From a virus: a stretch of DNA of 37,376 bases. Every line of letters begins with the position of its first letter. Positions within the stretch are counted from its first letter, which is position 1. The stretch is taken from IMG/VR virus record IMGVR_UViG_3300045988_112792; one strand, given 5' to 3'. The notes below the pieces were generated by a model. It was given only the letters and a program-made list of their open reading frames with translations, did not search any database and was not told the DNA's origin. Positions 1-37,376 of this stretch are shown one piece after another. The translations under genes were made by a program, and so were the position numbers.

Positions 1-119
1 CTTTTTTTTTGCAAAAATGCGTTTTTAGCTATTGACATTCGCGGCAAAAAGTAGTATAATATAGGCACGGACAAGATAAGCCGCGGGCGCGAAAAAGCGC
101 CGGGCGTGGAGGGTAAGAA
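1..119. repeat. Terminal direct repeat: bases 1-119 are identical to 37258-37376, so the window is one circularly closed or terminally redundant unit of 37,257 bp
   Basis: Compared base for base by eye. Both copies read C T9 GCAAAAATGCGTTTTTAGCTATTGACATTCGCGGCAAAAAGTAGTATAATATAGGCACGGACAAGATAAGCCGCGGGCGCGAAAAAGCGCCGGGCGTGGAGGGTAAGAA. Confidence 0.95.
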
Positions 120-120
120 A
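11..120 (+). promoter_or_regulatory. Promoter-leader cassette copy A
   Basis: -35 TTGACA 32-37, 17-nt spacer, -10 TATAAT 55-60. Conserved ATAGGCACGGACA follows the -10. Leader hairpin 80-105 (GGCGC/GCGCC stem, GAAAAA loop), RBS GGAGGG 108-113, ATG 121. Its upstream terminator lies across the circular junction at 37237-37267. Confidence 0.8.
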
Positions 121-333
121 ATGAAGCAAATTAGTTTGGACAACGGACACAGCTACATGGACGCGAGCGAGGCCATGACGGAGATTATGGAGCGTGGCCT
201 GTGGGAGACGGTCGTGAGCCTGATGGACGACGGTATACGCGAGGCAGTGGCGGACGATATGGCGCCCTGCAGCGAGGAAGAGTTTTTGAAGGAATATCTC
301 GCGCGTGCCAATGACGATTTGGTCGTTGGCTGA
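121..333 (+). CDS. Small, very acidic hypothetical protein (70 aa); cargo of cassette A
   Basis: ORF track 106-333. ATG at 121 sits 7 nt after GGAGGG, and the GTG at 106 overlaps that RBS. By my count about 17 D/E versus 5 K/R. No recognisable motif. Confidence 0.7.
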   Translation: MKQISLDNGHSYMDASEAMTEIMERGLWETVVSLMDDGIREAVADDMAPCSEEEFLKEYLARANDDLVVG

Positions 334-344
334 CGCGCGGCAAC

Positions 345-376
345 AGCAAAGGCCGCCCGAATGGGCGGCCTTTGCT
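345..376 (+). terminator. Strong hairpin downstream of 121-333 (probable intrinsic terminator)
   Basis: AGCAAAGGCCGCCC GAAT GGGCGGCCTTTGCT, a 14-bp perfect stem. The T-tract is weak and partly inside the stem. Confidence 0.6.
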
Positions 377-377
377 A

Positions 378-406
378 TTGCATATACACCGGTATTGTGA
401 TAATAT
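378..406 (+). promoter_or_regulatory. Candidate promoter of the exonuclease gene
   Basis: TTGCAT 378-383, 17-nt spacer, TAATAT 401-406. Shares the 13-mer TGTGATAATATAT (396-408) with the repressor promoter at 33769-33781. Confidence 0.45.
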
Positions 407-437
407 ATCAGTAATGCAATCTTTTTGGAGGGATAAT

Positions 438-1643
438 ATGGGATATATATTGATAGGCATAGTCGCGCTGCTGCTTTTTAGTCCCCTGATACTGCTGATA
501 CATGGTAAAGCGCCGGAACCAGAACCGGAACCAGAGCCGGAACCAGAGCCGGAGCCAGAGCCGGAGCCAGAGCCGGAGCCGGAACCGGAGCCGCCTAAAC
601 CAGCTCCGCCTAAAGTGCCAGCGGCGTTGAGGCAGAATATAATTGACTGTCCGTCCGACTATACCGTAATAGACTTTGAGACTACCGGCCTTGACCCGGT
701 AACGGACGCGATAACCGAGCTGGGCGCGCTGCGCGTGCGCGACAACAAGATTTCCGCTTCGTATCAAACGCTGGTCGATCCGGGTCGCCCGCTGCCAGCG
801 AAGATAGTGGAGCTGACCGGCATTACCGACGATATGCTAAAGGGCCAGCCCAAGCTCGAGGACGTGCTGCCGTTTTTTGTGGATTTTCTGGGCGACGATA
901 TAACGGTAGGGCACAACGTAACGTTTGATCTCAAATTTTTAGCCATGGCGCGCGAAAAGTGCGGTATGCCCAAAAAGGATTATAAGTGGATAGACACCTG
1001 CGCGCCTGCGCGCATAATCTATCCGGACGCGGGAAAGTATAGTCTGGATGCGTTGGCAAAGCACTTAAAACTTGGCGAGCCTCAGCACCGCGCCAATGCC
1101 GACATGCGCGTGACATACGCCATATTTTTAAATGAAATGGCGCAGATTACCAAGTACGACCGCATTTGGCCGATGCTTAAAGTGCAGTATGACGTCGATG
1201 CGCCCGCCGACGCGCGCTCGGCATGGGCGCGCCCGACAGACGAAAAGAGTGCGGATTTAACGCCGCTAAAAAATGAGTTGCGGTGGTGTGACGATTTTGT
1301 GCGCAAATATTATTATACGGATGTGCGCGCGCTGCGCGATGATAAGTGCGACGGCCGAAGCGTGGCGGCGGGCACGTCCTGTATCGTGCTGTACAGCGAC
1401 CTCGATAAGCGCGCAAATATTTTTGACGTCGCCCACCCCGAAAAACCCATAGGCTACCTCCCCCAAAACCGCTTAGCCGACATGGTGTGCGACTATACGC
1501 ACAACGTGGACATGGTGCTGGCGACCGCCGACGCGATAAGCGCGGGCGGCGCGGTAAATATGCTGGAGATGGCCTTTTACATGGATGAGGGTCCCGCCGA
1601 TGACGACGACTTTGACGATGATGACGACTTTTCGGACGATTGA
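438..1643 (+). CDS. Membrane-anchored DEDDh (DnaQ-like) 3'-5' exonuclease with (PE)13 linker, HIRAN-like C-terminal domain and acidic tail
   Basis: RBS GGAGGG 427-432 then ATG 438. N-terminal hydrophobic helix MGYILIGIVALLLFSPLILLIHG. Exo I VIDFETTGL, Exo II GHNVTFDLKFL, Exo III HRANADMRVT. C-terminal segment ...ANIFDVAHPEKPIGYLPQNRLADMV resembles HIRAN. Tail DDDDFDDDDDFSDD. Confidence 0.8.
   Translation: MGYILIGIVALLLFSPLILLIHGKAPEPEPEPEPEPEPEPEPEPEPEPEPEPPKPAPPKVPAALRQNIIDCPSDYTVIDFETTGLDPVTDAITELGALRVRDNKISASYQTLVDPGRPLPAKIVELTGITDDMLKGQPKLEDVLPFFVDFLGDDITVGHNVTFDLKFLAMAREKCGMPKKDYKWIDTCAPARIIYPDAGKYSLDALAKHLKLGEPQHRANADMRVTYAIFLNEMAQITKYDRIWPMLKVQYDVDAPADARSAWARPTDEKSADLTPLKNELRWCDDFVRKYYYTDVRALRDDKCDGRSVAAGTSCIVLYSDLDKRANIFDVAHPEKPIGYLPQNRLADMVCDYTHNVDMVLATADAISAGGAVNMLEMAFYMDEGPADDDDFDDDDDFSDD
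513..590 (+). repeat. In-frame hexanucleotide tandem repeat (CCN GAR)x13 encoding (Pro-Glu)13
   Basis: Read directly: ccg gaa cca gaa ccg gaa cca gag ... ccg gag. Followed by PPKPAPPKVP. Confidence 0.95.
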
Positions 1644-1678: not shown

Positions 1679-2045
1679 GTGCGCAAAAAGCTTGCGCGCA
1701 AGTCTGCCCCATGCTAAAATATCAGCGTGCGCAAAAAATTAATCGTTTAAGCATCGGCACCGCGCAATATCAAAAACGTTTGCGCCGGGCTTTGCTTTGC
1801 GGTTGATGTAGATTATGCGGCGGCGGACATCCGCATAGGCGTACACATGGGGCTGGTCGGGCGCACTAATCGTGTCATAGTAGTAGCCGCCATATCGCGG
1901 GCGGCTCTTGTCGGATCGCAATAATATCGCCCCCCAGTATACTTGATGGTATATTATATGCCAGTCAAGCATAAAATATACCATGCAGCGGTCATAATGC
2001 AAAATTTTTGCGTTAATGATAATACATAAAAGTAGGTGTAAGAAA

Positions 2046-3200
2046 ATGGCAGTTAAGAAGTACACGACGGCAGAACCCCGATGGCTTGAGCAGTACGGTA
2101 GATGGCAGGTCAACGTCCAAAAGGACGGACGGCGCAAAACCTTTTCGTCGTCCATCGCCGGGCGCAAGGGCAAGGCCGAAGTCATGGCGCGCGCGACAGA
2201 ATGGCTGCAGTCTATGGACGCGGATAACATCCGGCTCTATGCCGCGTGGGATCGGTTTATGGCCGATCAGCAAAAAAACACCGGCAAATCCAACTGGGTC
2301 AAGCATGACAGTCACTGGCGCACTCACATCAAGCCCACTATCCCCGACAAGCGACTGGACAGCGTGACGCCGTTTGAGTGGCAGGCGTGCATCAATCACG
2401 CGGCGCAAAATGGCGCGAGTAAACGCACTTGCATTAACGTGCGCGCGACGATTATTAGATTTAGATCGTTTTGCGAGCTTGAGCGTTTTGCGCATACTAT
2501 ACCGGCCGGTACAGTGCTCAAGGTGCCTAAAAATACTCGATTCAAAAAGCGCATTATCCTCCAGCCCGACGATCTATACCGTCTTTTTACCACGGATCGC
2601 ATTACTAAGACGGTATACGGTACGCATCTGCGTACCACGCCCATATACTATATACATGCGTGGCGATTTTTAGTTGCGACGGGCTTGCGCCCCGGCGAAA
2701 TCATACCCTTGACGCATGATAGTATCGGTAAAGGTGGCATTTTATATATTGACGGCAGCCGCAATATCTTAAACGAGCACACCGACGGCAAAAATCAAAA
2801 CGCAATCCGCAAATTTATATTGACCCCGCTTGCTTTGCGAATACTGGACGATCAGGCTGATATGCTTAAGCAGCGCGGCATAATATCGCCTTACCTTTTC
2901 CCGGCGCCGGATGGCGGTCAGATCATATCATCGCGCCTCACACGGGCATGGTGTGATACGCGCGGCAGTCTGGGCATTAAGTCTCGCATGTACGACCTGC
3001 GTCACACTTATGTCAGCGTTGTCAAGTCCGACGTCCCCGACCCACTTCTGCGCGCGACGGTTGGACATAGCACTAAGATGGACACCTATGCCGTGTATGC
3101 GCATGAGCTGGACGGCGACATGCAGCGTGCCGCCGACATGGCTGAGGTAGCTTTTGATAAGGTTTTAGGTGGTGATATTGCCAATCCAAAAACACGTTAA
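2046..3200 (+). CDS. int: Tyrosine recombinase (phage integrase)
   Basis: RBS AGGTG then ATG 2046 (ORF track 2016-3200). Catalytic signature LRPGEII (Arg), HDLRHTY (His-x-x-Arg), GHSTKMDTYAVYAH (His ... Tyr). Lies directly upstream of a tRNA-like fragment. Confidence 0.9.
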   Translation: MAVKKYTTAEPRWLEQYGRWQVNVQKDGRRKTFSSSIAGRKGKAEVMARATEWLQSMDADNIRLYAAWDRFMADQQKNTGKSNWVKHDSHWRTHIKPTIPDKRLDSVTPFEWQACINHAAQNGASKRTCINVRATIIRFRSFCELERFAHTIPAGTVLKVPKNTRFKKRIILQPDDLYRLFTTDRITKTVYGTHLRTTPIYYIHAWRFLVATGLRPGEIIPLTHDSIGKGGILYIDGSRNILNEHTDGKNQNAIRKFILTPLALRILDDQADMLKQRGIISPYLFPAPDGGQIISSRLTRAWCDTRGSLGIKSRMYDLRHTYVSVVKSDVPDPLLRATVGHSTKMDTYAVYAHELDGDMQRAADMAEVAFDKVLGGDIANPKTR

Positions 3201-3319: not shown

Positions 3320-3347
3320 TGGTGGAAGCGAGGGGAGTCGAACCCCT
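3320..3347 (-). other. 3'-terminal fragment of a tRNA or tmRNA (T-arm + acceptor 3' strand + ACCA): candidate attP core
   Basis: Minus strand reads AGGGG TTCGACT CCCCT CGCTTCC A CCA. No matching 5' acceptor strand or anticodon arm upstream, so it is a fragment. U at position 70 and A73 are compatible with tRNA-Ala or tmRNA. Confidence 0.7.
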
Positions 3348-3413
3348 AGCCAAAGCGCCGGAAAGCGTCCAAATGTAGGCACTTCACGGCGCTTTACAAA
3401 ATCCAAAAACCCG

Positions 3414-3455
3414 TCAAAAAACCCATTGATGCTGAAAAACGTCAATGGGTTTTTG
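3414..3455 (-). terminator. Bidirectional intrinsic terminator ending the Cys-repeat gene
   Basis: ACCCATTGA ... TCAATGGGT (3421-3429 / 3442-3450), flanked by an A6 run on one side and a T5 run on the other. Confidence 0.8.
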
Positions 3456-3484
3456 CATGTCGGCCAATGATTAAATTGTGCTGG

Positions 3485-4393
3485 TTAATCGTTGTCTAGC
3501 GTGCAGTTGTCGTCAAGCGTGCAGCCGTCGCCTAGCTCACAGTTGACGCCCAGTTCGCAACAGTCGCCCAGCTCGCAACAACTGCCCAGCTTGCACTCGT
3601 AGCCCAGCGTGCAGTTGTTGCCCAGCTTGCACTCGTCGCCCAGCGTGCAGTGGCTGTATAGCTCGCAACCGTTGCCCAGCGTGCAGTTGTTGCCCAGTTC
3701 GCAGCACATGACCAGTTCGCAACCGCTGCCCAGCGTGCAGCCGTCGCCCAGCTTGCACCCGCCGTATAGCTCGCAACCGCTGCCCAGCGTGCAGTTGTTG
3801 CCCAGCTTGCATCCGCTGCCTAGCCTGCATCTGCTGCCCAACGTGCAGCCGTCGCCGAGCGTGCAATCGCTGCCCAGCGTGCAGTAATTGCTCAGTGCGC
3901 AACACCTACCCAGCGCGCAGTTATAGCCGAGCTCGCAGTAATCGCCCAGTTTGCAACTGCTGCCAAGCGTGCAGCCGTCGCCTAGCTCGCAACTGCCGCC
4001 CAGCGTGCAGCCGTCGCCGAGCGTGCAATCGCTGCCCAGCTCGCAACACCTGTCCAGCGTGCAGTTGTCGCCGAGCGTGCAGCCGTCGCCTAGCTCGCAT
4101 CTGAAGTTCAGCCCGCACCTGCTGCCGAGCGTGCAGCCGTCGCCAAGCTTGCAGCCGTCGCCGAGCGTGCAATCGCTGCCCAGCGTGCAGTTGTCGCCGA
4201 GCGTGCAATCGCTGCCCAGCGTGCAATTGTCGCCGAGCTCGCAGTTGTCGCCCAGCCTGCAATCGTTCGCAAAAATCAGGCGCGCGTTATCGGCGCCAAA
4301 GTCTACTTTTGTCCAATTGCCGCTGGGCAGATGTTTATACCCGCACTCATCGCGCTCGATAGCCTTAAAATCATCCTGCTCGTAACACTTCAT
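3485..4393 (-). CDS. Acidic cysteine-rich hexapeptide-repeat protein (predicted left-handed beta-helix); cargo of cassette D
   Basis: RBS AAGGAG 8 nt before ATG 4393. A 46-aa N-terminal region is followed by 42 uninterrupted LGxxCx hexapeptides (LGDNCT, LGSDCT, LGDGCT ...). About 50 Cys, about 48 D/E versus about 19 K/R by my count. No signal peptide or TM segment. Confidence 0.85.
   Translation of the reverse strand: MKCYEQDDFKAIERDECGYKHLPSGNWTKVDFGADNARLIFANDCRLGDNCELGDNCTLGSDCTLGDNCTLGSDCTLGDGCKLGDGCTLGSRCGLNFRCELGDGCTLGDNCTLDRCCELGSDCTLGDGCTLGGSCELGDGCTLGSSCKLGDYCELGYNCALGRCCALSNYCTLGSDCTLGDGCTLGSRCRLGSGCKLGNNCTLGSGCELYGGCKLGDGCTLGSGCELVMCCELGNNCTLGNGCELYSHCTLGDECKLGNNCTLGYECKLGSCCELGDCCELGVNCELGDGCTLDDNCTLDND
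3500..4255 (-). repeat. Degenerate 18-bp tandem repeat x42 (coding, underlies the hexapeptide array)
   Basis: Units such as CAGCGTGCAGCCGTCGCC / GAGCGTGCAATCGCTGCC recur without interruption. They generate long shadow ORFs in other frames. Confidence 0.9.
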
Positions 4394-4504
4394 GCTTTTT
4401 TCTCCTTGCCCGGCGCTTTCCCGCGCCCGCGGCCTTGACTGTCCGTGCCTATATTATACTACTTTCCGCCGCGATTGTCAATACCAAATCGCACATTTTT
4501 TGCG
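4394..4504 (-). promoter_or_regulatory. Promoter-leader cassette copy D
   Basis: On the minus strand: TTGACA (4476-4481), 17-nt spacer, TATAAT (4453-4458), ATAGGCACGGACA, hairpin GCCGCGGGCGCGGGAAAGCGCCGGGC, then AAGGAG and ATG. Confidence 0.8.
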
Positions 4505-4546
4505 CCAAAATACAAATAATCCCCCTGCCAAAGCAAGGGGATTATT
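4505..4546 (-). terminator. Intrinsic terminator closing the late/post-lysis operon
   Basis: AATAATCCCC ... GGGGATTATT, a 10-bp stem (4515-4524 / 4537-4546). TGTATTTTGG follows on the minus strand. Confidence 0.6.
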
Positions 4547-4560
4547 TGAAGCCGCGCTTA

Positions 4561-4875
4561 TTACCTCCGCTTATAAGCCTCCAGCAGCGCGCGCACGTCG
4601 GCGGTATCTTTGGCCACGTCGCCCAAATCGGCGTCGTACACCATCCGCGCGCCCGGCACCATCGCCGCGTCCATGCCATCGTCGGCCATGCGCGCCATGC
4701 AGTTCTGCGCCATCGACATGCCGCCGTCGTTAAATTTGAGGTGCGCGTCTGCCATGTCGCAGCACCAGTCGGCGGCCTGCCGACTTTTGTCGCGCAGCTC
4801 GTGCGCCTTGGTCGCGTACTTGCGCGCCTCGCGGACGTTTCCGCGCAGCACATCCATTATCCAGCGCATCATCAT
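4561..4875 (-). CDS. Hypothetical protein (104 aa)
   Basis: ORF with ATGA start/stop overlap with the upstream gene. No recognisable motif. Confidence 0.6.
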   Translation of the reverse strand: MMMRWIMDVLRGNVREARKYATKAHELRDKSRQAADWCCDMADAHLKFNDGGMSMAQNCMARMADDGMDAAMVPGARMVYDADLGDVAKDTADVRALLEAYKRR

Positions 4876-5306
4876 GCCAGACGCACCACCCTTACGCTGG
4901 TCAGGTCGGCCGTCGCGCCCGCGCCGCTGGCCTGCAAAGTAAGTGAGTTGACGTTGGCGCAGTTAGGCGCGATGTACCGCGCCGTGCGCGTGCTTATCGC
5001 GTACTGCCCGGCGGCGACGCTTATAGTGCGCAGCGTCTCGGGCAGGGCCACGCCGTTAAGGTATATCTGCACCGTGACAGTACCGGCGGCGGTCGCGGTC
5101 AAGTTAACGTCGCCGTCGATCTGATACGTGCCGCCCGCGCGCACGTTGACCGCCGCGCCGTTAAGCGACAGCGCGCAGCCGGTATCTGTCACGGTCGCGC
5201 CCAGATTAAGCGGCGCGGCAGTCGCAGTCAGCGTCTGCGCCGCGGTATTATACGCCTCCAGCACAGACTTGTAATGTGGGTTTTTTAGGTTGCAGCAGCA
5301 AGCCAT
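4872..5306 (-). CDS. BclA C-terminal-domain-like (C1q/TNF-like jelly-roll) protein
   Basis: Pattern GTYQIDGDVNLTATAAGTVTVQIYLNGVALPE ... SVRVVRLA resembles the BclA/C1q-like C-terminal domain. Unusual MACCCN N-terminus. Confidence 0.45.
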   Translation of the reverse strand: MACCCNLKNPHYKSVLEAYNTAAQTLTATAAPLNLGATVTDTGCALSLNGAAVNVRAGGTYQIDGDVNLTATAAGTVTVQIYLNGVALPETLRTISVAAGQYAISTRTARYIAPNCANVNSLTLQASGAGATADLTSVRVVRLA

Positions 5307-5332
5307 AAGTCATATCCCCTTTCAATAATAAT

Positions 5333-5358
5333 CGCCCGGCGACAAGCGTCGCCGGGCG
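5333..5358 (-). terminator. GC hairpin after 5392-6003 (weak terminator or attenuator)
   Basis: CGCCCGGCGAC AAGC GTCGCCGGGCG, an 11-bp stem. Only a weak ATTATTATT tract follows on the minus strand. Confidence 0.4.
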
Positions 5359-5391
5359 CGCGCTTGTTAAAGCGATGTAGTCGGCTTAGTC

Positions 5392-6003
5392 TTACATGAC
5401 GCCAAAGGCCCCGCCAAAATTGCCGCCGCACTGGCCGCAAGGATTGTACGCGGGCACCGGGTAAGGCCTCAAAGTATTGACGAGGTAGGCGTTTTGCGCG
5501 CACTGGCTCTGGCCAAGCTGCAGCTCGCTTACCTTATCGCGCAGCTGCTGAATCGTGTCGGCCTGCATCAGCGCGCGGGTCTGCTCGCCCTCCGCGTGTA
5601 TCGCGGTGGTTATCGCGCAGGTCTGCCGGTCGGTCTGCGCCGCGAGGTTAGCTATGGCCGTCTGCGTCTTGCAGCAGCAGTCCGCCAGCTGCATCTGAAC
5701 GTTGCGCCCCTCGCCGGTTATGGCATTGTTAAGGGCGTAAGTACTATTGCAGGTGCCGTCGCTTATGCGCTGCAACGCGGAGTTAAGCCCCTGGAACTGC
5801 TGGCCATAAAGTATTTCCTGCTGGCTGGCCGCCATGGCGTACTGGCCGTAATCGCTCTGGCGATTGCCCCACAGGTTGCCGCCGCCCATAAAGACAAAAA
5901 GGAAAAGGATGATAATCCACCATGCGCCGCCGCCGAATCCGTCGTCGCGGTCGCCCTCGGTCGCCGCGCGGATGTCCGCGAGGCTGTAGTTGCTCGCATC
6001 CAT
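5392..6003 (-). CDS. Single-pass membrane protein, unknown function
   Basis: RBS GGAGGG before ATG 6003. TM segment AWWIIILFLFVFMGGG. Cys/Gln-rich ectodomain or cytoplasmic domain. Confidence 0.7.
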   Translation of the reverse strand: MDASNYSLADIRAATEGDRDDGFGGGAWWIIILFLFVFMGGGNLWGNRQSDYGQYAMAASQQEILYGQQFQGLNSALQRISDGTCNSTYALNNAITGEGRNVQMQLADCCCKTQTAIANLAAQTDRQTCAITTAIHAEGEQTRALMQADTIQQLRDKVSELQLGQSQCAQNAYLVNTLRPYPVPAYNPCGQCGGNFGGAFGVM

Positions 6004-6066
6004 AGTAATCCCTCCTATATATGGATATATATATGTATACGCCGAGCGCGCATCGGCGGTATACGC

Positions 6067-6306
6067 TTACTTGAGCAGGCTGCTAAATTCCTTTGCCATC
6101 TCTTTTAGCTCGCTAAACTGCTCTTGCGACATTTGACCTTCGGTCAGCAGTTGCATGACTGCCGCTTTGGGGTCTTTGCCTGACATAAGCTGCTTAAACT
6201 GCTTAAATAGTTTTAACATATTGCCAATGCCGTTACTGCCCGTCGGCATTGTCGGCATTGTCGGCTGAGACGGGCTTTGACCGCCCCCGAACAGATTGCT
6301 GGCCAT
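6067..6306 (-). CDS. Hypothetical protein (79 aa)
   Basis: Strong RBS GGAGG 9 nt before ATG 6306. Overlaps the 3' end of the upstream gene by 74 nt. Confidence 0.6.
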   Translation of the reverse strand: MASNLFGGGQSPSQPTMPTMPTGSNGIGNMLKLFKQFKQLMSGKDPKAAVMQLLTEGQMSQEQFSELKEMAKEFSSLLK

Positions 6307-6646
6307 GTGCCTCTACCTCCTTACGCAGTGCGTCAAATTCCGCGCGCGTCACGTACTTGCTTGTGTCGCTAACGTTCCCCGCTGCCGACGTGTCAATAGG
6401 GACAAGCTTAAAGGCTTGTATTGCATCTGTCCCCGCGCCGCCGGTCTTTTTTACGTAAATCATATCTGCGCCGTTGTTAAATGGCACCCCCATGGGGTTG
6501 GGCGGCGCGGTTGGCTGCTGTGCAGGTGGCACTTGCGACAGCATTGCGTTAAGCCTGTCCATATATGACTGCGCGGCGCCCGGCTGCCACTGCGTATACC
6601 CGCCGTACGGGTTGCCCGCCTGCGCGGCCTGTCCGTATCCGTACAT
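6233..6646 (-). CDS. Gln/Pro-rich hypothetical protein
   Basis: GGGGAG RBS with ATG candidates at 6655, 6652 and 6646 (ORF track 6233-6733). Start choice is uncertain. Confidence 0.55.
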   Translation of the reverse strand: MYGYGQAAQAGNPYGGYTQWQPGAAQSYMDRLNAMLSQVPPAQQPTAPPNPMGVPFNNGADMIYVKKTGGAGTDAIQAFKLVPIDTSAAGNVSDTSKYVTRAEFDALRKEVEAHGQQSVRGRSKPVSADNADNADGQ

Positions 6647-6732
6647 TCGCATCATCTCCCCTGCCCTGATTATACCGCGCACGGCAGGTCGGGCGGGGGC
6701 GGTTGTGTCGCATTCGCGGGCGTTTTCGGGCA

Positions 6733-6763
6733 TAAAAAAAAGACCCGGCGTAATGCCGGGTCT
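6733..6763 (-). terminator. Intrinsic terminator after 6773-7180
   Basis: AGACCCGGC GTAAT GCCGGGTCT followed by T8 on the minus strand. Confidence 0.85.
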
Positions 6764-6772
6764 GCACCCCTT

Positions 6773-7180
6773 TTAATTCATCCGCGCGGCCCATCCGACC
6801 GCGCGGCTTGTGACGAACAACATCTCGTCAGCGTCAAGACCTGTCGCTTCGTACAGGCCTTTAGCGGCGGCGACGTTCCACCGCTCGTCGGCGTCCACGT
6901 CGCCGCCGATGCAGTCAAGTGAGAAGCGCCATTCGTGCCCGGTCGCCGCGACAGTAATCTCGGCGCTCCATCTGTCGCCGAAATCCCCGCAGCTATTATC
7001 AAACCAGTCGACGATAACATCACCGACCGGCGTTGCCCAGACCGCGCCGCCCGCAGGCTGGAAGTACCCGCCGCCGTTGTTGCAGGTGTCGCCATCTGCA
7101 AAGGGGTTGGTTTCGCAGCCCCAAACGCTTATCATGCGGGGAGTGGTGGTGGTATTAATGGTATTATTCATAGTGTTCAT
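6773..7180 (-). CDS. Hypothetical protein (135 aa); cargo of cassette E
   Basis: RBS GGAGGG then ATG 7180. Thr/Asn-rich N-terminus, several Cys and Trp, no recognisable motif. Confidence 0.75.
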   Translation of the reverse strand: MNTMNNTINTTTTPRMISVWGCETNPFADGDTCNNGGGYFQPAGGAVWATPVGDVIVDWFDNSCGDFGDRWSAEITVAATGHEWRFSLDCIGGDVDADERWNVAAAKGLYEATGLDADEMLFVTSRAVGWAARMN

Positions 7181-7295
7181 TTTTGTCCCTCCATGCCCGG
7201 CGCTTTTTCGCGCCCGCAGCCTTGACTGTCCGTGCCTATATTATACTACTTTACGCCGCGATTGTCAATACCAAATCACACATTTTTTGCAACAA
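7181..7295 (-). promoter_or_regulatory. Promoter-leader cassette copy E
   Basis: On the minus strand: TTGACA (7263-7268), 17-nt spacer, TATAAT (7240-7245), ATAGGCACGGACA, hairpin GCTGCGGGCGCGAAAAAGCGCCGGGC, GGAGGG. About 90% identical to copy D over about 115 bp. Confidence 0.8.
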
Positions 7296-7330
7296 AATAC
7301 AAAAATCCCCCGGCCATATCGACCGGGGGA
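7296..7330 (-). terminator. Intrinsic terminator after the lysis cassette / small HTH gene
   Basis: TCCCCCGG ... CCGGGGGA stem (7306-7313 / 7323-7330). TTTTTGTATTTT follows on the minus strand. Confidence 0.75.
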
Positions 7331-9496: not shown

Positions 9497-9877
9497 CTAC
9501 TTTTCCGTCGGCGGCACCGGCCACACCACGCTTGCCGGGAACCCCGCCTGCTTGGTCACGTCCCTAAGCCGCTGCCGATACTCCGCCCATGCGGTACGCG
9601 CGGCATATGTGGACGGATAGTCGGTCGCCTGCGTGTAGTCGCTTGCCGCCAGCAGCGCGTCCCGCTTTGCGCGCACATCGGCGGCCATCTGCTCGTAGTC
9701 GGGCGCGGCCTCGCCGCCGCTGCCGTCCGCTTCAGCGGGCGCGCCCGTCACGCCCACTATCCCGTCATACTCATCCTGCGTAATCCAGCCCTTGATTACG
9801 GCATTTTTGAGCATTTTTTTTGTCCAAAGCTGCTTAGCATAGTACCCCTTGACCAGTTCATACCTCTTGCTTGCCAT
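9497..9877 (-). CDS. XkdX-like N-terminus fused to a tail-fibre assembly (chaperone)-like C-terminus
   Basis: GGGAG RBS 8 nt before ATG 9877. N-terminal YYAKQLWTKKMLKNAVIKGWITQDEYDGIV (XkdX-like). C-terminal RDALLAASDYTQATDYP ... YRQRLRDVTKQAGFPASVVWPVPP (tail-fibre assembly motif). Confidence 0.55.
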   Translation of the reverse strand: MASKRYELVKGYYAKQLWTKKMLKNAVIKGWITQDEYDGIVGVTGAPAEADGSGGEAAPDYEQMAADVRAKRDALLAASDYTQATDYPSTYAARTAWAEYRQRLRDVTKQAGFPASVVWPVPPTEK

Positions 9878-11903
9878 CCGTCTCACTCCCTTCTATGCCC
9901 GTCGGCATGTCCATGCCGCTATCCGCGTCTGCATCGTCTACCGCCGTCAGGTCGTCCACGTCCACGTCTGCCATCATGGCGACGTAATCCAGCTTTGCAG
10001 CCTGCGCCTCTGCCGTGCTCGCCGTGGTCTGGGGCGGCGTGGGGGCAGTTATAGTCAGAGTGTCTGCGTCGGTTATGATTGCGTTTGTGCCAGCCAGCGC
10101 AAGCACCGTCTGCCCGCCCGTTGCCGTAAAAGGCACGGGCGTAGCCAGCTTGTACGCCACCTGCGCGCCAATCGTAGGAGTAGCCCCTGCCGCATACTCA
10201 TCCCTGTCGCTGATCCACTTACCCGGCAGGGTCTCGCCTGCATAGCTATCGATATGGCCCCACGTCTCTTGCCCCTGTCCTGTGATTGTATCGATTATGC
10301 CACCATAAATGGTGCGAGGCAGTGTCAGCAAGGATTGCTTGCCCGCATATGGCTGATATTCTGCGGGCACTGCCTCGGGCGCATATACGCCTATCTTTAG
10401 GGTCATGTCTACCATCACGCCGGGCACCCAGTCCTTTGCATCCACCTGCAAGGCTATAACATTCTCCTTTTGTGTCCTAAGGCCATATAGTTTGTGCGAC
10501 AAATATGTGCCACTCGTTACTGTGCTGGTGATTTTTAGCCCACGTCCACTTAGCAAGTAATTATTCAGGTATACTATCGCAAAGCTCCGAGCGCCGCTTA
10601 CGTTGTATGTGCCCTTGATTCGGATCGTGCTCTCGCCGATGGGCTCAATTGTTAAACCGTAGGCCTCTATGGAGGAGGTGTCAATATCGTCCGGATTTAG
10701 CAAGTTTGCATTTGATTCCCGCAGCGTTACAAGCTTAGTTCCTGTTATCGGCCTTATATTATCCGGCGACGGTGTGCCGCTGCCCTCCTGCTTAGGCTCC
10801 CAGCTCGCACTTAGCTCCAAAGGATACCCCTCAAGCGCCTCTATGACCACAGGATTACCTGTCACGGTCTGCATCGGCAGTAGCTTATCCACCGTATTCT
10901 TACTCGACCACGCCTTACCCTCCGCGATAACCGTATCGTCGATAATCCCCGCCGCATCCTGCGCGGCCTTTTCAGCCGCCTCCGCACTCGCCGCCGCCGC
11001 GCTCGCAGACTGCGCCGCCGCATCCTTACTGCCCGCCGCCGCCGCGGCGCTGCCCGCCGCATCGCTCGCCGCCGCGCCCGCCGCCGTCTGTGCCGCCTGT
11101 GCCGCGTCCCGCGCCGCCGCCGATTGGCTCGCGCTTCCCGCCGCCGCCGATGCAGACCCCGCCGCGTCCGTAGCCGATTGCGCCGCGCTGCTCTTACTGC
11201 CCGCCGCATCGCTCGCCGATTCAGCCGCCGCCCGCGCCGATCCTGCCGCCGCGTCCGCCGACTCCTTGACGCTATCCAGCGTGCCCGCCGCCGCCGCCGC
11301 GCTTTCCGCTGACGCTTTGGCCGATGTATCTGCCGCCGCCGCCGACTGCGCCGCTGCGCTTGCCGACCCGCTCGCCGCGTCCGCCGACGTTGCCGCGCTC
11401 GCGGCCGACTTGCTCGCCGCACTTGCGCTGCCCGCCGCCGCGTTTGCACTCGACTGCGCCGCCGCCGCCGATCCCGCCGCCGCCGCCGCGCTTTCCTGCG
11501 CCGCCGCCATCGCGCCCTGCGCCGCGTCGCTCGCGTCCAGCACGTCCTTGACCCAGCCGCTTTGCGTATCGGTATCGGGCGGGGTCAGGCTGGGCGCTAT
11601 CGCCGTGGCCGCGATTACCGACTTAGCCACCTTATCATCGACCGTGGCCACTATCTCAATCGCGCCCAGCCCCGCGACTGCCATCGCGTCCATGTCGGGC
11701 GACCACGTGATAACGCCCGTGTCGCTTACGTCCGCCTTGACTATGCGCGCCGTCTCGCCGCGCGTGCGCCGCTGCATCAGCGTCAGCCGCGCGCCCGGAT
11801 AGTCGTTCAGCATCTTCGCGCAGTCGATCTCGACCGCGCGCGCGTACTGCTCGCCCTGTCTGCCCAGCGGTATCGACTTGGGCAGGTCGTATATATCGTA
11901 CAT
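9858..11903 (-). CDS. Tail fibre / receptor-binding protein with a long Ala/Ser-rich coiled region
   Basis: RBS GGAGGGG before ATG 11903 (ORF track extends to 12017). About 200 aa of SA/AA low-complexity repeats (DNA 10947-11537). Position is downstream of the distal tail genes. Confidence 0.7.
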   Translation of the reverse strand: MYDIYDLPKSIPLGRQGEQYARAVEIDCAKMLNDYPGARLTLMQRRTRGETARIVKADVSDTGVITWSPDMDAMAVAGLGAIEIVATVDDKVAKSVIAATAIAPSLTPPDTDTQSGWVKDVLDASDAAQGAMAAAQESAAAAAGSAAAAQSSANAAAGSASAASKSAASAATSADAASGSASAAAQSAAAADTSAKASAESAAAAAGTLDSVKESADAAAGSARAAAESASDAAGSKSSAAQSATDAAGSASAAAGSASQSAAARDAAQAAQTAAGAAASDAAGSAAAAAGSKDAAAQSASAAAASAEAAEKAAQDAAGIIDDTVIAEGKAWSSKNTVDKLLPMQTVTGNPVVIEALEGYPLELSASWEPKQEGSGTPSPDNIRPITGTKLVTLRESNANLLNPDDIDTSSIEAYGLTIEPIGESTIRIKGTYNVSGARSFAIVYLNNYLLSGRGLKITSTVTSGTYLSHKLYGLRTQKENVIALQVDAKDWVPGVMVDMTLKIGVYAPEAVPAEYQPYAGKQSLLTLPRTIYGGIIDTITGQGQETWGHIDSYAGETLPGKWISDRDEYAAGATPTIGAQVAYKLATPVPFTATGGQTVLALAGTNAIITDADTLTITAPTPPQTTASTAEAQAAKLDYVAMMADVDVDDLTAVDDADADSGMDMPTGIEGSETDGKQEV

Positions 11904-11914
11904 GCTTACCCCTC

Positions 11915-12166
11915 CTACTGCTTGGGATTGCCTATCGGATACTCCACCACATACGTGCCGCTTATCTTGACTATCTTGACGCGCTGTCCCGCCGCAAACG
12001 TCAGCGCCGCGTTGCACTTATAGTGCTTTGCCGTCGGCTCGCTGTCGCCGTCAAAGATGAGCGATATGCCGTCGCTGTACACCGCGCCCACCGTGGCCAG
12101 CTGCGCCGCCGCGGGCGCGGCGCGTTCATCCTCCAGCGACTTTTTGGTTTGATAGTCCATTATCAT
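11915..12166 (-). CDS. Small tail/baseplate-associated protein
   Basis: ORF translationally coupled to its neighbours within the tail module. No specific motif. Confidence 0.5.
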   Translation of the reverse strand: MIMDYQTKKSLEDERAAPAAAQLATVGAVYSDGISLIFDGDSEPTAKHYKCNAALTFAAGQRVKIVKISGTYVVEYPIGNPKQ

Positions 12167-33750: not shown

Positions 33751-33779
33751 TTGATTTTGTCCTGAATGTGTGATAATAT
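33751..33779 (+). promoter_or_regulatory. Repressor promoter (PRM analogue)
   Basis: TTGATT 33751-33756, 17-nt spacer, TAATAT 33774-33779. Overlaps the TGTGTGAT motif. Confidence 0.5.
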
Positions 33780-33804
33780 ATATGTATGGATTGGAGGTGA
33801 TACA

Positions 33805-34347
33805 ATGGCAGACACAATTAATGCTCGCTTTAGGGCTTTGCGCAAACGGCTCGACTTAACTATCGCGCAAATGGCGGATGTGCTGGGCTTGTCGCCGTCC
33901 GGCATATCGGCGATCGAGTGTGCACAGCGTAACGTTACTGATAAGCACATTCGGCTTTTGGCAAGTGCATATCCGCGCCTTAATGTCGAGTGGCTTAAAA
34001 GCGGCGAGGGCGATATATTTTTGCCTGAAAGCGACCATACAGGCAGTATAGATGATCTATGCGCTCAATACGGTCTTGACAGTATGGCCGCGTCTATGCT
34101 GCGCAGCTATGTCCAGCTTGACGCCGAGCATCGTCAGATGATACACGACTGGCTTATGGCGTGGCATGACGACTATGACAAGCGCAAGGCGCGCACCAGC
34201 GGCGGCGATGGCCAGACCGCCGACGATGCAGCGCCCTCCAGCGCAGACCCGGACGCCGACTTTAAACGGCAGGTGCTTGAGGGTCGCGCGCGGCACGAGG
34301 CATACATGGCCGCCCAGCGCGACGCCGAAAGCAAGCAGGCGCAGTAG
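33805..34347 (+). CDS. XRE-family HTH repressor (CI analogue), no S24 peptidase domain
   Basis: RBS GGAGGTG then ATG 33805. LTIAQMADVLGLSPSGISAIECAQRNV HTH. Divergent from the early operon. The C-terminal half lacks a Ser/Lys autoprotease signature. Confidence 0.8.
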   Translation: MADTINARFRALRKRLDLTIAQMADVLGLSPSGISAIECAQRNVTDKHIRLLASAYPRLNVEWLKSGEGDIFLPESDHTGSIDDLCAQYGLDSMAASMLRSYVQLDAEHRQMIHDWLMAWHDDYDKRKARTSGGDGQTADDAAPSSADPDADFKRQVLEGRARHEAYMAAQRDAESKQAQ

Positions 34348-34390: not shown

Positions 34391-34410
34391 ATGCGAGCGG
34401 CAAAATTTTT

Positions 34411-34498
34411 TTGAAAAAAGCGCTTTAGGGTATTGACATTCGCGGCGGAAAGTAGTATAATATAGGCACGGACAATCAATAAATGGAGGACGAGAACG
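34411..34498 (+). promoter_or_regulatory. Promoter cassette copy C (lacks the leader hairpin)
   Basis: TTGACA 34433-34438, 17 nt, TATAAT 34456-34461, ATAGGCACGGACA, then GGAGG and ATG 34499. Confidence 0.8.
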
Positions 34499-35116
34499 AT
34501 GTGTGACGAGATTAAGATTACAAAGGTAGCTGACGACAAGATAGAGGTTCGCACCCCGTACAACCCGCAGTTTGTATCTAAAATAAAGACTGCGGGCGCG
34601 CGCTGGAACGCCATTGATAAGGCGTGGACGATGCACGCCGCCAACATCGACGTGGCGCGCGAAATCCTGCGCGCGGTGTATGGCCGCGACGATATGCCCG
34701 CGGCGGACGAAAAGCTGGTGCGCGTGCGCGTCACCGCGCTGCAAAACATCAGCGCAGACCGCGGGCCGATAGTCCTGCTGGGGCGTATCATCGCTTCCGC
34801 GCGCGGCCGCGATTCCGGCGCGCGCGTCGGTGAAGGCGTTGCGTTTATAGATGGAAAGCCGCAGAGCGGCGGCAGCGTGAAGAACTGGACGACTGAGATT
34901 AGCGAGGGTAGCATTTTCGTGGTGGCCGACGTACCCACCACGCTGCTTGGCGAGCTGGATGAGACCGGCTGGCGTGGGCAGAAGCTGTATCGGTACGAAA
35001 TCATTGACGACGACCGTGACGAGCAGCTCCGCAAGCTGCAGGCGCGCCGCGAAGAGCTGGCCGCCGCCTTGGCCGATATTGATGCGCAGATTAATGCGCT
35101 TAAAGGAGGTAACTAA
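34499..35116 (+). CDS. Hypothetical protein; DUF5710-like N-terminus + C-terminal coiled coil
   Basis: VRTPYNPQFVSKIKTAGARWNAIDKAWTM resembles the (K)ALGARWD...KxW motif. C-terminal LRKLQARREELAAALADIDAQINALK. Confidence 0.65.
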   Translation: MCDEIKITKVADDKIEVRTPYNPQFVSKIKTAGARWNAIDKAWTMHAANIDVAREILRAVYGRDDMPAADEKLVRVRVTALQNISADRGPIVLLGRIIASARGRDSGARVGEGVAFIDGKPQSGGSVKNWTTEISEGSIFVVADVPTTLLGELDETGWRGQKLYRYEIIDDDRDEQLRKLQARREELAAALADIDAQINALKGGN

Positions 35117-36680: not shown

Positions 36681-36692
36681 TGCAATAGTTTA

Positions 36693-36722
36693 GTGTCGCT
36701 CGTATGAGCGGCACTTTTTTTT
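36693..36722 (+). terminator. Intrinsic terminator (copy 1 of a duplicated terminator)
   Basis: GTGTCGCTC GTAT GAGCGGCAC + T8. Identical stem-loop at 37237-37258. Confidence 0.85.
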
Positions 36723-36829
36723 GTAAAAATGCGCCTTTGCATATTGACATTCGCGGCGCAAAGTAGTATAATATAGGCACGGACAATCAAAGCCGCGGGC
36801 GCGAAAAAGCGCCGGGCGTGGAGGCGGCA
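36723..36829 (+). promoter_or_regulatory. Promoter-leader cassette copy B
   Basis: TTGACA 36744-36749, 17 nt, TATAAT 36767-36772, ATAGGCACGGACA, hairpin 36792-36817, GGAGG, ATG 36830. Confidence 0.8.
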
Positions 36830-37195
36830 ATGAAATATAAAGTAGTGATCGAAACCAAAAGCCGGTCGCTGTGCGGCACAGTAACCGCGCAGCTGGAGCC
36901 GACATACAAGCACGTAAGCATCCCGTCCGGCGCTTACGCCACGCCTGCCGACTTTTGCCGCAAGGCATTGGACGGCCTCAAGGATCTGGCGCGCGACGAC
37001 ATAGAGCGCGCCATCGACGAGGCCGGTATGGACGCGGCGCGCGCAGGCTTTGAGGCCGGGCGCGACACGTACTATAGCATACGCTTGTACGCGGTAGACG
37101 CGGACGGCGAGCCGATTAACCCGCGGCGCGCGGATGCGCATAAAGGGTTTTGGACGTCCAAAGTGTTTGGGCAGGAGTATGTGACGCGTCGATGA
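36830..37195 (+). CDS. Hypothetical protein (121 aa); cargo of cassette B
   Basis: ATG 36830 after GGAGG (ORF track 36818). No motif recognised. Confidence 0.65.
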   Translation: MKYKVVIETKSRSLCGTVTAQLEPTYKHVSIPSGAYATPADFCRKALDGLKDLARDDIERAIDEAGMDAARAGFEAGRDTYYSIRLYAVDADGEPINPRRADAHKGFWTSKVFGQEYVTRR

Positions 37196-37236
37196 GCCTT
37201 ACGTCAATCGGCGCGTATCAGGTGCAAATAGATTTA

Positions 37237-37267
37237 GTGTCGCTCGTATGAGCGGCACTTTTTTTTT
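37237..37267 (+). terminator. Intrinsic terminator (copy 2)
   Basis: GTGTCGCTC GTAT GAGCGGCAC + T9. The T-run continues into the terminal repeat. Confidence 0.85.
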
Positions 37268-37376
37268 GCAAAAATGCGTTTTTAGCTATTGACATTCGCG
37301 GCAAAAAGTAGTATAATATAGGCACGGACAAGATAAGCCGCGGGCGCGAAAAAGCGCCGGGCGTGGAGGGTAAGAA
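37258..37376. repeat. Second copy of the terminal direct repeat (equals 1-119; contains the duplicate image of promoter cassette A)
   Basis: Identical to 1-119 by direct comparison. Confidence 0.95.

Follow-up and report, generated by a model that had tools for sequence, protein, structure and literature searches.

What use a phage would have for a gene that encodes little besides cysteine-bearing hexapeptides is the question raised by one locus of IMG/VR virus record IMGVR_UViG_3300045988_112792, a stretch of 37,376 nucleotides that is referred to here as the window. The gene encodes a 302-residue protein that consists of an N-terminal cap, 42 uninterrupted hexads L-G-x-x-C-x and a four-residue tail. 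The answer favored here, with modest confidence, is that the protein is a non-enzymatic acidic solenoid of the left-handed parallel beta-helix (LbH) type whose cysteine core is steric in function, that it is horizontally acquired cargo of an exchangeable slot, and that, as a rod binding or mimicking a macromolecule, it would serve anti-defence or exclusion. The parts of the gene are as follows.

3485..4393, minus strand: coding sequence of the 302-residue Cys-hexapeptide protein; stop codon at 3485-3487, the first-start-to-stop open reading frame (ORF) in its frame.
4256..4393, minus strand: N-terminal cap domain (N-cap), residues 1-46, predicted by AlphaFold2 (AF2) as a short helix and two strands packing on the first rung, at a predicted local distance difference test score (pLDDT) of 90-98.
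3500..4255, minus strand: 42 uninterrupted hexads L-G-x-x-C-x, residues 47-298, in 18-bp DNA units.
3488..3499, minus strand: four-residue acidic tail LDND, where relatives have a C-terminal domain.

Counted by script, the protein consists of a 46-residue N-terminal region, 42 complete in-register hexads without insertions or deletions, and the tail LDND. Hexad position 1 is Leu in 43 of 43 units, position 2 is Gly in 35 of 43, and position 5 is Cys in 42 of 42; a degenerate unit before the array, FANDCR, supplies a 43rd in-register Cys, and five hexads (units 12, 20, 31, 38 and 39) carry CC. Overall there are 50 Cys (16.6% of residues) and 47 Asp plus Glu against 19 Lys plus Arg, for a net charge of -28, a computed pI of 4.12 and a mass of 31.3 kDa; His is found only at H21 and H248. 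The N-terminus (MKCYEQDDFKAIERDE...) is acidic and shows by inspection no hydrophobic stretch, signal peptide or transmembrane segment. An initial annotation of this DNA had described the 46-residue region and 42 consecutive loop-free repeats, the invariant position 5 Cys with five CC repeats and about 50 Cys in total, strong acidity (by its count about 48 Asp/Glu to about 19 Lys/Arg), and the lack of a visible signal peptide or transmembrane segment; the counts and inspection agree with it very nearly throughout.

The repeat array is far beyond chance. Tandem Repeats Finder gives an 18/36/54-bp periodicity in the array DNA and a second repeat finder agrees on 18 bp and its multiples; the 18-bp units have a mean nucleotide identity of 69%, and exact internal repeats of 24-42 nt are present. 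The array is not an assembly artefact, because the longest exact internal repeat (42 nt) is shorter than the k-mer length of the MEGAHIT assembly from which the contig comes (k=119). Since the invariant Leu is spelled by five codons (CTG, CTC, CTA, CTT and TTG), selection appears to act on the protein and not on the DNA; likewise invariant Leu and Cys, no frameshift over 756 bp and units only 69% identical point to old, diverged repeats under purifying selection. ORFs in other frames or on the opposite strand across the array (92-144 residues, of low-complexity Q/R/L/H or S/P/L/Q composition) were set aside as by-products of periodic DNA that are without a ribosome-binding site (RBS), promoter or family support.

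Judged by its sequence, the protein is an LbH-type repeat protein and not an acyltransferase. Pfam Hexapep (PF00132) matches it at E=9.4e-60 and 196.4 bits (cut-off 27) in 10 stretches, and 42 of 42 hexads fit the rule; LbH_EIF2B scores 97 bits against a cut-off of 54; and a phmmer search of the PDB yields an in-register alignment of 172 residues to the helix of LpxD (E=1.5e-14), with LpxA and GlmU also matching. These enzyme matches are limited to the repeat part. All 25 NCBIfam enzyme models listed fall under their curated cut-offs, the best being LpxD NF002060 with 156 versus 207, and the protein lacks insertion loops, any additional catalytic or C-terminal domain, and a conserved context for either His; it is because of the missed cut-offs, the lack of loops and extra domain, and the presence of only two His that an acyltransferase is rejected. 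The hexapeptide rule of left-handed beta-helices that the initial annotation had invoked is thus obeyed, and the profile comparison with Pfam hexapeptide families that it proposed comes out in favor of PF00132 with the enzyme families below threshold.

In the nomenclature of the type I LbH the hexad is written B1-B2-B3-B4-T1-T2, with B1 and B3 pointing inward and B3 being I/V/L, and Cys at the inward B1 position is a known option of the fold (bioRxiv 10.1101/2023.06.27.546660). Read as C-x-L-G-x-x, the hexads of the window protein would map to B1=Cys and B3=Leu, i.e. to known LbH grammar that is extreme in having Cys at every rung. The canonical LbH rises about 4.8 A per rung; assuming this rise, 42 hexads would form about 14 rungs and a rod of about 67 A. 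AF2 modeling from a 35-sequence alignment, in which the C-domain of homologues is aligned against repeats at the C-terminal end, gave a mean pLDDT of 71.6, with values above 90 for residues 1-100 and of 73-79 for residues 171-220. The 15-hexad homologue P0013 was modeled at pLDDT 95.8 and a predicted template modeling score of 0.86 as a cap, a 6-periodic solenoid and a C-domain of four strands and two helices, and both proteins show a strictly 6-periodic strand pattern (EE----). Charged residues versus Thr at position 6 follow a period of 3 (p=0.04) and none of 2, 4 or 5, a weak 18-residue superperiod; among lags 1-9 hexad identity is highest at lag 3 at both the protein and DNA levels, with a z of only 1.1 that is not significant. 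Neighbors in BFVD are unnamed hexa- and pentapeptide phage proteins, stand-alone look-alikes of the C-domain, and one 'polymer-forming cytoskeletal protein'.

The arrangement, which the initial annotation did not recognise, is not without precedent and is the signature of a large phage and metagenome family. A word-indexed search found 1040 proteins at E<1e-5, and an exhaustive search 783 at E<=1e-10, many of the latter being unrelated long LbH proteins. In most of the top ~120 matches (P0001-P0120; PHROG 5353/2154 and phrog_20532) a homologous N-cap is followed by CxLGxx repeats without interruption and then by a C-terminal domain. The consensus of 117 proteins and 1748 hexads is L 90%, G 93%, [D/N] at position 3, C 98% (a figure that is partly by construction, as arrays were delimited by Cys) and [K/E/T] at position 6. 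The N-cap carries a family motif of ~45 residues (..Q.DF.A..R...GY..LP.G.W..VDF) that is present in the 302-residue protein, whose cap is 34-42% identical to those of the other aligned family proteins, and the hexads directly follow the cap in every homologue read. On this evidence the Cys-type proteins are a large uncharacterised accessory family of phages and metagenomes with free array length. The names given to its members are automatic only ('isoleucine patch superfamily', 'LpxD'), and a literature search on cysteine ladders or cysteine-rich LbH proteins in phages and on anti-defence LbH proteins found nothing that describes the family.

Array length in the family is variable but register is kept. 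The spacing from cap to C-domain is constant modulo 6 within a subtype, in 26 of 26 and 35 of 35 proteins of the two main register classes, with five of 66 anchored proteins outside these; modulo 18, all three classes are populated, i.e. the spacing is not quantised in whole rungs. The end domains therefore need no fixed azimuth relative to each other, and rung size is not confirmed by this measure. P0008 and P0029 are 90% identical over their aligned length and differ by 12-residue and 6-residue gaps; thus repeat number appears to change readily, one hexad at a time, as had been anticipated from the expandable 18-bp DNA repeat.

The family C-terminal domain is alpha/beta and usually ~80-100 residues long (GRV..., VRAGCWF..., phrog_20532); Pfam searches with the isolated N-cap and with three C-domain types gave no match, and Foldseek found no PDB neighbor for the C-terminal domain of P0013. 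Residues 135-209 of P0013 (~70 residues) superpose with a root-mean-square deviation of 1.1-1.9 A on stand-alone phage proteins of ~80-115 residues in BFVD (A0A8S5VXK1, A0A8S5UZA9 and A0A6J5SX87), and the size of these stand-alone matches suggests that the modeled segment is the family C-terminal domain. Full-length relatives are located in small-gene early, replication or recombination modules, often near methylases and also near an AcrVA2-like gene. Sister families with Ala/Val in place of Cys/Leu are represented by Ruminococcus phage phiRM10 gp34 and Streptococcus phage Javan64_0019; these early-region genes encode uninterrupted hexads in the same register and share the C-domain with the Cys family (BLASTP E=1e-11), Cys aligning with Ala and Leu with Val. 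Unlike the window protein they follow G-[DN]-A-x-V-x in place of G-x-x-C-x-L, have a different N-terminal domain, and retain the C-domain.

Within this family the window protein is on sequence grounds an extreme derivative, with the longest array of the top 120 and the C-domain replaced by an acidic tail. It shares with the Cys-type proteins the homologous N-cap, the hexad grammar L-G-[DN]-x-C-[KET], the loop-free array and a phage setting, whereas its 42 hexads exceed their maximum of 24, its 43 in-register Cys compare with 2-24 in the other top-120 matches, and it is found in a slot beside the phage attachment site (attP) and not in an early or replication module. Position 6 is Thr in 48% of its units versus 12% in the family, mainly in replacement of Lys. 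Its C-terminal region is four residues long versus at least 68 in all other top-120 matches, and between the last hexad and the terminator there is no coding capacity for the missing domain, an absence that goes beyond what the initial annotation observed. The last two units have Asp in place of Gly at position 2, and together with LDND this looks like a polar stop that would replace the cap domain.

The missing C-domain is no isolated case, because a cap plus solenoid without it recurs in P0155, a complete 81-residue gene found on six contigs that has five hexads and an acidic end. Its N-cap is the closest subtype, 72% identical to the window protein over the first 78 residues (cap and five hexads). 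At the syntenic position in a related phage is the 273-residue P0006, which has a different C-terminus, and both genes lie in an early operon with FtsK/SpoIIIE-like and AcrVA2-like genes. The phages in question (L003/L009; Logan contigs SRR33025842_3129 and SRR23529744_22256) encode serine recombinases and carry either the 81-residue or the 273-residue version at one syntenic position a few genes upstream of the AcrVA2-like gene.

The setting of the 302-residue gene is that of cargo in a temperate phage. The window begins and ends with the same 119 nt; it is a circular phage genome in attP configuration that integrates into ssrA. The relevant elements are these.

3320..3412, minus strand: attP core, consisting of the 3' T-arm and acceptor end of transfer-messenger RNA (tmRNA; ssrA), Rfam RF00023, E=2.3e-7.
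2016..3200, plus strand: tyrosine integrase, PHROG 1, E=5.8e-39.
3434..4434, minus strand: swappable cargo segment, beginning just past the promoter and ending within the terminator; 476 bp with an unrelated 134-residue ORF in IMGVR_UViG_3300045988_172742.

ARAGORN detects no complete tRNA or tmRNA in the window. The exact 40-nt att core has no match among genome contigs, and a 28-nt tmRNA end matches metagenome-assembled genomes of uncultured Clostridia (Christensenellaceae, Oscillospiraceae, Ruminococcaceae and Saccharofermentanales), so that the host is assigned, at class level from this 28-nt core, to the Clostridia. The sibling phage IMGVR_UViG_3300045988_172742 was located via the neighboring genes of the window, the 302-residue protein itself as query having found no relative in IMG/VR. 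Its integrase is 97% and the upstream ORF 95% identical, and to either side of the slot the two contigs align collinearly at 94% nucleotide identity; within the slot it has a Cys-rich 134-residue ORF (L007 6897..7301) without a Pfam or PHROG match. From this comparison the hexapeptide gene is exchangeable cargo, probably acquired horizontally, in a promoter-to-terminator slot beside attP. The proposal that it is a moron next to attP with its own consensus promoter and bidirectional terminator is strengthened, because the sibling carries a different cargo between the same promoter and terminator.

Two further repeat-containing genes of the genome may be mentioned here. The ORF at 372..1643 (plus strand) encodes a DnaQ-like 3'-5' exonuclease (PHROG 192) that is joined to a hydrophobic stretch at the N-terminus and to a long (Pro-Glu)n linker, and the sibling phage has a different number of these repeats; and 15 copies of a GC-rich 42/21-nt repeat at 10933-11525, within ORF 9858..12017 of the minus-strand late-gene arm, encode an Ala-rich periodic segment of a 719-residue protein.

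The signals predicted to direct expression of the hexapeptide gene belong to a promoter and leader cassette that is repeated in the genome.

4453..4481, minus strand: consensus sigma-70-type promoter TTGACA-17-TATAAT, 12/12 matches, invariant in five cassette copies and the sibling phage.
4394..4452, minus strand: 5' leader, containing a GC hairpin and, 8 nt before the ATG, the RBS AAGGAG (4407..4402).
4513..4548, minus strand: strong intrinsic terminator of the upstream operon, insulating the hexapeptide gene.
3417..3460, both strands: bidirectional intrinsic terminator of A-tract, 15-bp stem and U-tract; z = -5.0 on the plus strand.
4389..4524, minus strand: cassette copy 1 of 5 (hexapeptide gene).
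7176..7311, minus strand: cassette copy 2, 88% identical, upstream of ORF 6773..7180.
1..119 (= 37258-37376, the circular overlap), plus strand: cassette copy 3, upstream of the AcrIC5-like ORF 106..333.
36713..36831, plus strand: cassette copy 4.
34402..34520, plus strand: cassette copy 5, with a diverged leader.

Across the five cassettes and the sibling phage an invariant block of about 45 nt takes in the entire 17-nt spacer, which suggests either that the spacer holds a regulator site or that the cassettes mediate gene conversion and cargo shuffling. The plus-strand copies lie between an HTH_3 repressor-like gene (33766..34347) and the integrase, i.e. in the lysogeny arm, and the small acidic ORF 106..333 (plus strand) is above the Pfam threshold for AcrIC5 (PF22147, 41.3 bits versus a cut-off of 27). 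The hexapeptide gene is thus probably co-regulated with an anti-CRISPR-like gene, and to judge from the consensus promoter it would be expressed from the prophage. Twin 41-nt terminator hairpins, 93% identical, at 36689-36729 and 37233-37273 end two successive cassette-driven units. A second cassette-driven operon (4561..7180, minus strand) follows the lysis genes and holds ORF135, small ORFs, a transmembrane protein with a CCCK motif (5392..6003) and a weakly BclA_C/TNF-like protein starting MACCCNLK (4872..5306).

How such a protein might act can be proposed from these features. A small N-terminal cap would be followed by ~14 rungs (42 hexads, ~65-70 A) with no catalytic feature; Leu (B3) and Cys (B1) would form the core of each hexad, leaving Asp, Asn, Ser, Gly, Thr and Glu outside to make a strongly acidic rod, and the Cys, not serving as metal ligands, would be present as free thiols, the host being an anaerobic member of the Clostridia with a reducing cytoplasm. 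The gene would have been acquired horizontally into the slot of a tmRNA-integrating temperate phage and be transcribed from the consensus cassette that also serves the AcrIC5-like gene. The product, a stoichiometric rigid acidic rod, may then bind, sequester or mimic a macromolecule (nucleic acid, or else a partner of the family's full-length members), to the benefit of phage or lysogen through anti-defence or superinfection exclusion. An acidic sequestering or mimicking rod is ranked first because of the promoter shared with the AcrIC5-like gene, the anti-defence-like neighborhoods of the relatives, and the analogy to DNA mimics among the pentapeptide-repeat proteins. MfpA, Qnr and AlbG resemble the window protein as capped, acidic, non-enzymatic rods of near-pure repeat and are weak Foldseek neighbors; like them, it is a plausible macromolecular mimic. 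They have no sequence relation to it, however, and their A(D/N)LXX repeat has a period of five residues versus six throughout the window protein. The pentapeptide DNA mimics form a right-handed four-sided helix.

Several observations weigh against this preferred account of an acidic binding or mimicking rod. Acidity is not a family trait; the excess of Asp/Glu over Lys/Arg in the repeat region ranges from -5 to +18 in the relatives and is +24 here, and DNA mimicry, if real, would be limited to the 302-residue protein and a few other members. The use of Cys in the family is so nearly total that it exceeds what a purely steric requirement would predict. The AF2 model falls below pLDDT 50 at residues 138-145, 240-293 and 299-302, and Foldseek with both AF2 models found no PDB match at E<=0.001, the top rows being right-handed helices with a TM-score of ~0.3; this null, probably an effect of the masking of repetitive 3Di strings, is taken as uninformative and does not speak for right-handedness. 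Of the ~14-turn left-handed beta-helix proposed initially, the helical repeat finds good support in homology and in 6-periodic AF2 strands; handedness and three hexads per rung would follow from sequence homology, to which the weak period-3 signal at position 6 lends some support. The protein sequence is known from a single contig, its expression is read from a predicted promoter, PHROGs 5353 and 2154 (repeat) and 20532 (C-domain) are annotated 'unknown function', and PADLOC assigned the protein and three homologues to none of its families.

The alternative that survives best, although it is unlikely, is a dominant-negative decoy, in which an extra-long scaffold without its effector would co-assemble through LbH trimerising faces with the full-length proteins of superinfecting phages and so bring about superinfection exclusion. 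In its favor are the absence of a C-domain that all other top-120 matches possess, the position of the gene at a prophage end with its own strong predicted promoter and terminator insulation, and the fact that full-length relatives are early-module genes of other phages. The window phage itself has no full-length copy, as no other ORF (all frames, at least 80 residues) lies in 18-bp hexad-repeat DNA. The decoy requires, however, the assumption that family members oligomerise, and the 81-residue version without a C-domain is found in an early operon and not in a lysogeny slot.

It is rather improbable that the protein forms filaments or fibres, i.e. that an uncapped solenoid builds end-to-end polymers, or tail-to-tail dimers as pentapeptide-repeat proteins do, to give long intracellular scaffold rods. 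Removal of caps from beta-solenoids, the LbH included, has been reported to permit self-assembly into fibres (bioRxiv 10.1101/2023.06.27.546660), the window protein ends in a tail of only four residues, and a 'polymer-forming cytoskeletal protein' is among the BFVD neighbors. However, Asp at position 2 of the last two units together with LDND looks like negative design against stacking, and since the N-cap is intact tail-to-tail dimers would be expected at most.

The cysteines invite a different type of explanation. In LbH geometry the distance is ~4.8 A between stacked residues and ~10 A between the three corners. The array has no CxxC or CxC chelating spacing, and Pfam finds neither a metal-binding family nor Pentapeptide in the protein. 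The Cys position appears to tolerate Ala in sister proteins that have the same C-domain and presumably do the same job, which argues against a metal or redox role. Cys at the inward position of the LbH has been reported to hydrogen bond to the main chain (bioRxiv 10.1101/2023.06.27.546660). Because the position is inward, Ala is tolerated, chelating spacing is lacking and the geometry is that of the LbH, the Cys ladder is read as core packing, probably by a small, hydrogen-bonding and cheap residue suited to the reducing cytoplasm of an anaerobe, with a small probability left to metals and redox.

A metal or redox ladder, in which 42 stacked thiols would bind metals or Fe-S or zip into disulfides and act as sink, sensor or wire, is accordingly given little credence and is very unlikely; in its favor are Cys at 42 of 42 positions here and at 98% in the family, beyond steric need, the 16.6% Cys content, and an anaerobic host, whereas a packed inward position, the spacings given above and the Ala of the sister families speak against it. 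The metal- or redox-binding rod suggested by the initial annotation is disfavored by that Ala and by the place of Cys within the known grammar of the fold. In a broader form the idea is still quite doubtful: the family would be a phage beta-solenoid class of its own, in which the all-Cys core has a function beyond packing, its stacked thiols working as a redox-switchable zipper or as a chain of metal-thiolate or Fe-S-like type, and the window protein, with its 14 rungs and no C-cap, would be a redox or metal device expressed in the lysogen or a new kind of anti-defence DNA-mimicking rod in anaerobic gut bacteria. Beetle antifreeze proteins (TmAFP/DAFP; TCTxSxxCxxAx) also have Cys at every sixth residue of a beta-helix, with the adjacent Thr outward (PMC4046741). 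The likeness is superficial, as these are secreted eukaryotic proteins with 12-residue disulfide-braced coils, and a TmAFP-like helix is ruled out by Leu-Gly in every hexad, the Hexapep homology, and the lack of a TCT motif and signal peptide.

Very unlikely, too, is evolutionary debris, i.e. a truncated paralogue whose array was expanded by slippage and kept because it is harmless. The C-domain is indeed missing, the protein is a database singleton, exact repeats of 24-42 nt are available for slippage, and since repeat DNA is open in several frames the intact ORF is weak evidence of function. Debris would not be expected, however, to maintain Leu in 43 of 43 units with five synonymous codons, Cys in 42 of 42, and an open frame over 756 bp in units that are 69% identical; the promoter is a perfect consensus followed by an RBS and terminator, and the architecture without a C-domain recurs independently.

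An ordinary hexapeptide acyltransferase, e.g. a lysogenic-conversion enzyme like LpxA, LpxD, GlmU or NeuO, is highly improbable: the window protein shares with these enzymes the rule [LIV]-G-x2-[STAVC]-x and helix matches at the sequence level (generic Hexapep and LpxD-type hidden Markov models), and prophages do carry LbH acetyltransferases such as NeuO of CUS-3, a cargo O-acetyltransferase with a variable repeat tract (PMC3046976), but the matches are confined to repeats, the 25 NCBIfam models stay below their cut-offs, and the protein has an all-Cys B1 ladder and lacks catalytic loops, extra domains and any catalytic context for its two His.

If the Cys are purely steric, the outcome is a tidy annotation of an orphan family and not a new principle. 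The locus brings to light a large, unstudied family, common in the phages of gut, rumen and digester, of idealised, loop-free beta-solenoids with an all-Cys ladder and variable length, and it shows cleanly how cargo can be exchanged between promoter and terminator in a slot next to attP. As natural, near-perfect LbH scaffolds with a defined N-cap, the family proteins would be useful for the study of capping, length tolerance and buried thiols and as design templates. Since its promoter cassette is shared with an anti-CRISPR-like gene, the 302-residue protein would reasonably be included in screens for anti-defence or exclusion in Clostridia.

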